Positions 20,286 to 21,777 of a stretch of DNA of 64,000 bases are shown here, one piece after another. The notes under the pieces were generated by a model. The model saw only the letters and a list, made by a program, of their open reading frames with translations. It ran no database searches and had not been told where the DNA came from. The position numbers were made by a program, and so were the translations under genes. Position 1 is the stretch's first letter. Each line of letters starts with the position of its first letter. Location: NCBI GenBank assembly GCA_000004985.1, contig GG738856.1. One strand, 5' to 3'. Source of the stretch: Naegleria gruberi (taxonomy: Eukaryota).

Positions 20286-21777
20286 TTAAGAAATAACTCT
20301 TTCATTTCTTAATATCTGTAGTATTGCTTGCTTTGTCTCCTTATAATCTATTAGATTCATAACAAGGGTCTTCTTGTAAGATATTGTTGGAGGTATATGA
20401 GATAGATACATATTTTGGATGTATTGTATTGACTTTTGAACAATCCATCCTCTATTTTTGTAATACACTTTGAATATATTGTTTTCTTCATCAATAGAAT
20501 CAAGCTGATTTCTTGTCATTTCTTCAAATGTTTTCATAGCAAATCTATAGCTAATATGTGGGTGGTGATATTTACACAAATTGTACCAAACATTTTCTCT
20601 ATTTGCTGCTTTGTTGAATTGCTTACATGATTGCATGACTGAAAACAAATCATATGGATTCAAAAACTTGAAAATTTCTGAGAGCATGTCTTCATTCATG
20701 TTGGTTGAAGGAATTTGATTGACTTCTATTGAAGAGTTATTTGATTTTCCAAAATTAATGAATGGTTTGATTGGTTCAACACCCTCTATCATGAATCCAT
20801 TTAAAATCTTGCTTTCCAATAAGTCTACCTTGCTAAATATTATATACAATGGTATGTTAGAGGGGAAATTCCCATCAGATATTGTTTTCTTGAAGCAGCT
20901 CAATGAATCTGTCAATCTATTCAATGAATCATCTTTAAACTATTAACTTTGAAATTTGAATTAATTTACCAACCTTCAAAACAAAACTGATTAAATTCTG
21001 ATAATGAAATAACATAAATTAAACATCCCAACTTGTGTTCAAATATATATTTCCACTCTTTCCAAGATTTAAATATTCAATTTTGAATTCATAATGCACT
21101 TACTTTTCCTTCCACACCTCTGACCTTCAGAATCAAGAATAACCACAGTTCGATTCTCAACTAAGTTCGACTTGATTATGTATTCAGGTATTCCAGTTGT
21201 CTGTTAAGATACATTCTTCAATAACTATTGAAATCAACTGAAACTTACCATCCAATATGATTCCAAATCTTCCTGTAATCCAATATCAAGATTTTGAATA
21301 GAATCCACTTTTCTCAATAGACTTTCAAAATTTTCCAAAGGAAACTGATATCTGTGACGATTACTATATGCCAAGTGAATGTTGGGAGTGGTAAAGAATG
21401 GAATGAATTTCCTTATTGCCTCATAATCCGAATCGATATTATTACTAAGATATTGATTATCCAACTCTGTATTTAAAATACTAGCCATAGCATTCTTCAT
21501 CATGTAATATAGTATCCGCCTTAATTCTTCTCTATCAAACTCTGTTAGCGAGTACTTGTTCAATGCTGATTTGAAATTTTTCACAAGTGTACTTTTACCA
21601 CCTTCCCCTAATAAACGTTTAGAGAATTATCACTTAATCGAACAACCTACCAGTCCCAATTATTCCCACACAAAACGGATTCATTTCTACTCTGTTTACT
21701 TCATCAATAACGTCATTATCGCTCATTGACGAAGAATCATCATTATCAAATGATGATGAAGAGTTATGTTGACCCAT
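20286..21777 (-). CDS. G-protein alpha-subunit-like domain fused to C-terminal F-box, 5 exons complement(join(20286..20932,20974..21057,21104..21200,21249..21607,21651..21777))
   Basis: MGQHNS N-terminus (MGxxxS myristoylation consensus). P-loop GTGGEGGKST. Helical-domain-length insert. TTGIPEY (switch I without the Arg finger) and DSEGQRCGRK in place of [34 protein letters not shown] matches [63 protein letters not shown] matches [39 protein letters not shown]. The F-box follows (MLSEIFKFLNPYDLFSVMQSCKQFNKAANRENVWYNLC). All four introns are 41-48 nt with GT..AG and consistent phases. Confidence 0.7.

Follow-up and report, generated by a model that had tools for sequence, protein, structure and literature searches.

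A Naegleria gruberi G-alpha gene with an F-box apparently nested inside its GTPase domain

A five-exon gene combining a G-alpha domain and an F-box

The window analysed here is a stretch of 64,000 nucleotides (64 kb) from contig GG738856.1 of Naegleria gruberi. Elsewhere in it, a reading frame of 227 residues is identical to the N. gruberi protein XP_002679842.1. On its minus strand, at 20286..21777, lies a gene whose product combines the domain of a heterotrimeric G-protein alpha subunit (G-alpha) with an F-box. The coding region runs from ATG to TAA over five exons: exon 1 (21777-21651), exon 2 (21607-21249), exon 3 (21200-21104), exon 4 (21057-20974) and exon 5 (20932-20286). Their limits follow from the spliced translation, which is in frame over 1314 nt and gives a protein of 437 residues. 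The four introns are all of the GT..AG type and measure 43, 48, 46 and 41 nt in the order of the exons. Exon 2 continues the P-loop and encodes alpha1 and the all-helical domain, as judged from the Pfam G-alpha match and from helices at residues 65-158 in an AlphaFold model of the N. lovaniensis orthologue, and exon 5 encodes the F-box with G-alpha sequence on either side of it.

This five-exon model and its intron positions had been put forward in an earlier, sequence-only reading of the DNA, and our coordinates match it exactly. That reading also placed both domains in one open reading frame (ORF), and we agree: as the F-box lies inside exon 5 between two G-alpha segments, no splicing choice is needed to join the domains. 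The coding region as a whole is supported by its in-frame spliced translation, by matches to both Pfam domains, by the same exon structure in a related Naegleria contig and by a ratio of nonsynonymous to synonymous substitution rates (dN/dS) of 0.19, a rough value since dS is close to saturation. We conclude that this is a real, single and conserved gene.

The G-alpha domain and its GTPase motifs

The Pfam G-alpha profile (PF00503) matched residues 33-270 of the 437-residue protein (E = 3.4e-33; 115.6 bits against a cut-off of 48.8) and covered profile positions 20-271 of 333. The best sequence matches in the PDB were G-alpha q, 11 and i chains (~1e-18). The motif blocks that the sequence-only reading had assigned to G-alpha were found opposite their counterparts both in the alignments to these chains and in an alignment to G-alpha-i1 from which the F-box insertion had been deleted (“insert-deleted alignment”). 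Its estimate that the first ~330 residues align to G-alpha was too long, as the N-terminal stretch of the match stops at about residue 272.

As had been claimed, the protein begins with MGQHNS (21760..21777, read directly from the sequence), which fits the MGxxxS/T consensus and makes it a candidate for N-myristoylation. The MGQ start recurs in the proteins of N. lovaniensis, N. fowleri and Willaertia and in that of the related Naegleria contig (L002). The first ~33 residues are rich in Ser and acidic in character; in the orthologue model residues 1-33 have a predicted local distance difference test score (pLDDT) <50 and form no confident N-terminal helix. The G1 motif or P-loop, GTGEGGKST (21588..21657), is split by intron 1 (21608-21650) and aligns with GAGESGKST of G-alpha-i1. 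Residues ~60-160, between alpha1 and switch I, align to the G-alpha helical domain.

Switch I reads YWMTTGI (21189..21257), is split by intron 2 and, in the insert-deleted alignment, keeps the Mg-binding Thr. The position of the catalytic Arg (R178 of G-alpha-i1) is taken by Tyr160, and Tyr is also found there in L002, N. lovaniensis, N. fowleri and Willaertia. In more distant relatives from metagenomes this residue is Lys (proteins P0014 and P0015) or Arg (P0018). The G3 motif and switch II, DSEGQRCGRKKW (21053..21134), are split by intron 3; DSEGQ stands at the DxxGQ position and the catalytic Gln189 is kept. Six switch II residues (G188, Q189, R190, R193, K195 and W196; GQR..R.KW) are invariant among the family members, G-alpha-i1 and an Acrasis G-alpha. 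The G4 motif, located by the insert-deleted alignment, is SKVD (20823..20834), with Ser for the Asn of canonical NKxD and with Asp259 kept; the motif reads NKAD in L002 and NKVD in both N. lovaniensis and N. fowleri. The N. gruberi protein thus has the GxGxxGKS of G1, the Thr of G2 and the DxxGQ of G3, and it departs from G-alpha at the switch-I Arg, NKxD and TCAT.

The F-box lies between two segments of the Ras-like domain

The F-box occupies residues 300-345, NMNEDMLSEIFKFLNPYDLFSVMQSCKQFNKAANRENVWYNLCKYH (20565..20702). Two Pfam profiles matched residues 300-342: F-box-like (PF12937; 2.5e-9, 37.2 bits, cut-off 24.3) and F-box (PF00646; 9.2e-8, 32.1 bits, cut-off 20.5). Together with the G-alpha match, every profile was above its curated cut-off, and this bears out, well beyond chance, the domain assignments made from the letters alone. 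The F-box is 80% identical to that of L002, and the corresponding region of the orthologue model is helical with a pLDDT of ~86. The sole folded module besides it is the surrounding G-alpha domain.

In all probability the F-box is nested in the Ras-like domain between alphaG and alpha4, after which the chain completes the fold with alpha4-beta6-alpha5. Alignment to G-alpha-i1 delimits an insertion of ~109 residues (273-381; 20457..20783) made up of a variable linker, the F-box and conserved post-F-box helices. It is followed by a C-terminal G-alpha remnant (residues 382-437; 20289..20456) with alpha4, beta6, a degenerate G5 (MNLID for TCATD) and a shortened alpha5. In relatives the insertion measures 109-139 residues and, in the insert-deleted alignment, always falls between alphaG and alpha4. 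An alignment of the intact proteins with G-alpha-i1 by MAFFT misplaced the C-terminus of G-alpha-i1 on the linker, and the insert-deleted alignment was preferred.

Four observations identify the remnant. When residues 273-372 were deleted, the G-alpha score rose to 132.9 bits and the match extended to profile position 326 of 333. Control proteins with four shuffled tails, one reversed tail or no tail scored 122.2-123.6 bits and their matches ended at positions 270-281, so that the real tail is worth ~10 bits over controls (uncorrected gain, +17 bits). A profile of nine family tails aligned to residues 292-341 of G-alpha-i1, that is, to alpha4-beta6-alpha5 (E = 2.2e-4). The AlphaFold model of the orthologue (N. 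lovaniensis P0001, 36% identity, built on a 10-sequence family alignment; pLDDT 75.5, predicted template modelling score 0.66) ends in a helix (388-403), a strand (412-417) and a helix (423-443), all with pLDDT 85-95. Finally, G5 in the sister species represented by L002 is TSAT, opposite the TCAT of G-alpha-i1. With the insert deleted, the family members could be aligned without difficulty to both G-alpha-i1 and the canonical G-alphas of heteroloboseans. The sequence-only reading, which had the C-terminus replaced by the F-box and the TCAT/G5 box and alpha5 missing, therefore has to be revised: both follow the F-box, with G5 degenerate in N. gruberi and alpha5 ending ~7 residues before that of G-alpha-i1.

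Conservation of the gene and alternative gene models

Among full-length relatives, N. lovaniensis C9374_000666 (P0001) comes closest, a protein of 444 residues with both Pfam domains. Its gene lies in the same surroundings, with an AMP-binding enzyme upstream and then a bromodomain protein, S24e and a tRNA synthetase. Gene order is conserved over ~19 kb between 10500-29600 of the window and the N. lovaniensis contig PYSW02000010.1 (L001); the neighbours are 55-78% identical at the amino acid level, and the gene studied here, at ~36%, is the most diverged and fastest-evolving of the syntenic block.

The closer Naegleria contig L002 (Logan SRR25266747) has the same five exons and an intact spliced ORF of 436 residues. 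Length differences between the two genes are all multiples of 3 in the exons (-6, 3, 3, 0, 3) and not in the introns (-2, 0, 1, 4), and identity is 62-86% in exons and 42-70% in introns. Within the overall dN/dS of 0.19, the equally rough values for parts of the gene were 0.09 for the Ras core, 0.07 for the F-box and ~1.1 for the linker ahead of the F-box. The gene is under purifying selection.

An exhaustive HMMER search with exon 5 as query returned 11 proteins. All of the matches that could be named or put in context (those of N. lovaniensis, N. fowleri and Willaertia, and P0014, P0015 and P0018) combine G-alpha and F-box. The N. fowleri orthologue is complete in CAG4711970.1 (448 residues), and the RefSeq/GenBank model XP_044561452.1 / KAF0976739.1 (298 residues) jumps from the P-loop to switch II and has lost most of the G-alpha domain. 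The Willaertia magna orthologue is KAL9652580.1 (406 residues). Among the metagenome-derived relatives, P0014 has 600 residues, P0018 509 and P0015 438 as called; the last is N-terminally truncated, its P-loop exon lying just upstream behind a short intron. Since Gpa18 of N. gruberi itself (see below) and proteins encoded on environmental contigs are distant relatives, the insertion must be old.

On the environmental contig that encodes P0015 (L003), an upstream ORF at 6871-7161 encodes MGNN...GTGGVGKS and is followed by a ~55-nt GTAAGT...ATAG intron. Short spliceosomal introns are thus present in the source organism of P0015, whose protein also begins with MG.

Two other accounts of the gene have to be considered. 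In one, a G-alpha was truncated ahead of G5 and alpha5 and its C-terminus was swapped for an F-box and an unrelated tail of ~110 residues. The Pfam G-alpha match on the intact protein does end at profile position 271 of 333, and the isolated tail has no Pfam match; this account is, however, contradicted by the analyses of residues 382-437 described above, and we regard it as very improbable. In the other, the gene would be an artefact, either a false merger of two neighbouring genes or a pseudogene in decay. G4 and G5 are indeed degenerate in N. gruberi. Moreover, no N. gruberi protein model for the gene was recovered and the exact 437-residue product was absent from a collection of 15 billion proteins, although such absence is weak evidence because the index-based searches for relatives were incomplete (a family-profile search returned 2 of at least 8 known members). 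Of four other ORFs in the neighbourhood looked up by exact sequence, three had no record and one matched a 714-bp metagenome contig only. Against an artefact, G-alpha segments flank the F-box on both sides within one uninterrupted exon, at least five taxa have an intact ORF, and the dN/dS values for the whole gene and for the F-box are low. It is hardly credible that the gene is a product of false merging or decay, and we retain a single gene with a nested F-box.

Relation to the F-box G-alphas already catalogued in Naegleria

The sequence-only reading took this architecture to be undescribed, but it has been reported for Naegleria G-alphas. In their reannotation of the Ras-superfamily genes in both N. 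gruberi and N. fowleri, Herman et al. [quoted passage not shown] Our literature searches found the statement in these supplementary files only. Two genes are listed in Table S8 as “G alpha with F-box domain”, Gpa18 and Gpa33. The N. gruberi counterpart of Gpa18 is XP_002678171.1*, a corrected model, and according to the legend of Fig. S7 manual alignment alone revealed the C-terminal G-alpha fragment of Gpa18. The N. gruberi orthologue of Gpa33, on ACER01000357.1, is a newly created model. The same work reports that Rab, Rho and Ran GTPases of Naegleria also carry F-boxes (Herman et al. 2021, PMC8296547).

Like the gene in the window, Gpa18 and Gpa33 have an F-box nested in the GTPase domain of a G-alpha and followed by a short fragment of that domain, and for them too a link to GTPase-dependent ubiquitination has been proposed. 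They differ in sequence. Gpa18 starts with MGQSTSSSS, is 31% identical over the G-alpha part and resembles the group of P0014, P0015 and P0018. The Gpa33 orthologue starts with MGVKFSNQ and is much longer, and its match to our protein is confined to 31 residues around the P-loop (E = 1e-4). Neither gene maps to the 64-kb window. The N-terminus and two motifs of the 437-residue protein were absent from the supplementary files of PMC8296547, whose tables give the first ~400 characters of each sequence, rows with an accession only being set aside. The gene in the window is therefore a third, possibly unannotated paralogue with a nested F-box, distinct from Gpa18 and Gpa33. Both the architecture and the functional idea are already published; what is added here is another paralogue, with orthologues in Naegleria and Willaertia. 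The known set of nested-F-box G-alphas thereby extends to a third lineage, which is also present in Willaertia. The design is unusual and functionally unexplored, yet already catalogued for paralogues of the same genus.

Among other N. gruberi G-alphas in Additional file 10 of PMC8296547 (XP_002678776.1*, XP_002676336.1* and XP_002671039.1*), an F-box-like stretch can be seen by eye past a complete G-alpha domain, for example PLLEDEILQISNFLELDDLLNM, and one such row is flagged “LRRs” (leucine-rich repeats). A C-terminal F-box/LRR arrangement may thus coexist with the nested type among the G-alphas of this species.

Comparison with known systems

Canonical G-alphas (PF00503; for example G-alpha-i1 and N. 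fowleri G-alpha-7, PDB 6ne6) share with our protein the P-loop, the helical domain, the switch I Thr, DxxGQ, switch II, the Asp of NKxD, the fold and an N-terminal MG. In contrast to them, it carries the 109-residue F-box insertion, has Tyr for the arginine finger, SKVD for NKxD and MNLI for TCAT, an alpha5 shorter by ~7 residues and no confident N-terminal helix.

Classical F-box proteins such as Skp2, Fbxw7 and beta-TrCP also have an F-box profile followed by helical linker elements. Their F-box lies N-terminal to WD40, LRR or Kelch repeats, whereas here it is embedded in a GTPase and the proline of the F-box “LP” motif is absent.

GTPases joined to ubiquitin-ligase modules are known from elsewhere in the Ras superfamily: Rab40 carries a SOCS box and belongs to the cullin-RING ligase CRL5, RhoBTB carries a BTB domain (CRL3), and TRIM23/ARD1 combines RING and ARF. 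Fusions of ARF-family proteins with F-box or BTB domains occur in protists (Vargova et al. 2021, PMC8358228). All of these unite a Ras-superfamily GTPase and a ubiquitin-ligase docking module in one polypeptide, and they supply the concept of ubiquitination that depends on nucleotide state. In them, however, the module is attached to one end, whereas our protein has it within the GTPase fold, the GTPase being of the G-alpha type with its helical domain.

A possible GTP-gated ubiquitin-ligase adaptor

The residues kept and lost suggest how the protein might work. It is predicted to be N-myristoylated and membrane-associated. Guanine nucleotide should still be bound, since the protein has retained its P-loop, the Mg-binding Thr, DxxGQ and the NKxD Asp, and GTP hydrolysis would be slow because the switch-I arginine finger is Tyr. 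With a short alpha5 and an acidic, disordered N-terminus, the protein would couple poorly to G-protein-coupled receptors or G-beta-gamma, and a normal receptor/G-beta-gamma cycle seems unlikely. The F-box would dock Skp1 and, through Skp1, probably Cul1-Rbx1; a link of the gene product to Skp1 and the Skp1-Cul1-F-box (SCF) ubiquitin ligase is a reasonable proposal. The conserved switch II surface could then act as a nucleotide-state-dependent recognition surface that brings partners to the SCF at the membrane.

Taken as a whole, the explanation that we favour, a nested-F-box G-alpha paralogue that acts as a myristoylated slow switch docking Skp1/SCF, has in our estimate a probability of about 0.5. 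Its mechanistic part, an SCF receptor or GTP-gated E3 adaptor forming the G-alpha counterpart of Rab40, RhoBTB and TRIM23, is put forward only tentatively. In the specific form of this idea, the switch II/alpha3 surface of a long-lived GTP form would capture some membrane-proximal protein, for example an effector, a regulator of G-protein signalling (RGS) or G-beta-gamma, and the F-box would present this partner to Skp1-Cul1; we consider that form rather doubtful.

Several points weigh against the favoured explanation. The gene model is known here from DNA sequence alone. The alignment of the family tails to G-alpha-i1 has an hhalign probability of just 45%, and the structural model is of an orthologue and draws on few sequences. 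With SKVD at G4 and MNLID at G5, nucleotide binding may be weakened in the N. gruberi protein, which may be a pseudo-GTPase. The “LP” proline is absent in every family member; this residue contacts Cul1 in the Skp1-Skp2-Cul1 structure, and hence Skp1 could be bound without Cul1.

The last point leads to one of two rival functions, in which the F-box recruits Skp1 without a cullin and the complex serves membrane traffic or scaffolding rather than ubiquitination. Skp1 is recruited in this way by yeast Rcy1 and Ctf13, and both the family-wide lack of the proline and the myristoylation-type N-terminus would suit such a role. Many bona fide SCF F-boxes also lack this proline, however, and we counted no positive evidence for a cullin-free complex, which we think improbable. 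The protein could instead be a functional signalling G-alpha with the F-box as a regulatory handle on its own abundance or location: binding to Skp1/SCF would lead to autoubiquitination and turnover. The invariance of switch II, the interface for G-beta-gamma, RGS proteins and effectors, fits this idea, as does the fact that F-box proteins are commonly autoubiquitinated. RGS-domain genes also lie near related genes on two contigs: one ~5 kb from the P0015 gene (L003, 13289-14260) and one, a faint match, ~8 kb from the N. lovaniensis orthologue (L001, 409-1747). No equivalent was seen in the window. The lost arginine finger, the shortened alpha5 and the lack of a confident N-terminal helix argue against the normal receptor/G-beta-gamma cycle that a signalling G-alpha would go through. 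The present evidence does not separate self-regulation from the adaptor model; nevertheless, we judge self-regulation fairly unlikely.

If the SCF-receptor explanation is true, heterotrimeric-G-protein-type switching would be wired directly to cullin-RING ligases, and at least three Naegleria paralogues would form a receptor family. A docking motif inside the G-alpha fold, rather than appended to it, would be an unusual coupling of a nucleotide switch to protein degradation. Should the capture of substrates depend on nucleotide state, nature would here provide GTP-gated E3 adaptors on which engineered versions could be modelled. The coupling of F-box and GTPase appears to have been exploited repeatedly in Naegleria, as its Rab, Rho and Ran GTPases indicate (Herman et al. 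2021, PMC8296547).

Other features of the window

The ATG is separated from the stop codon of the AMP-binding-enzyme gene upstream by 83 nt (21778..21860, minus strand) that are 95.9% identical to L002, compared with the 62-86% of the exons. Conservation of this region in N. lovaniensis was not found and it has no Rfam match; a scan of 19.5-22.5 kb with Rfam gave only a sub-threshold match to a small nucleolar RNA. It is probably a compact promoter or 5' untranslated region.

The sequence-only reading also noted a gene for a seven-transmembrane receptor-like protein 25 kb away. Short ORFs that look hydrophobic by eye do occur at ~45800-47000 on the plus strand, and a membrane protein spread over several exons would fit the run. 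No Pfam profile matched a crude concatenation of these ORFs (E <= 0.1), so the receptor assignment itself was not borne out, and nothing connects the run with the G-alpha/F-box gene. Farther along, at 54000-64000, the GC content falls from ~32% to 17-27% over the final 10 kb of the window.
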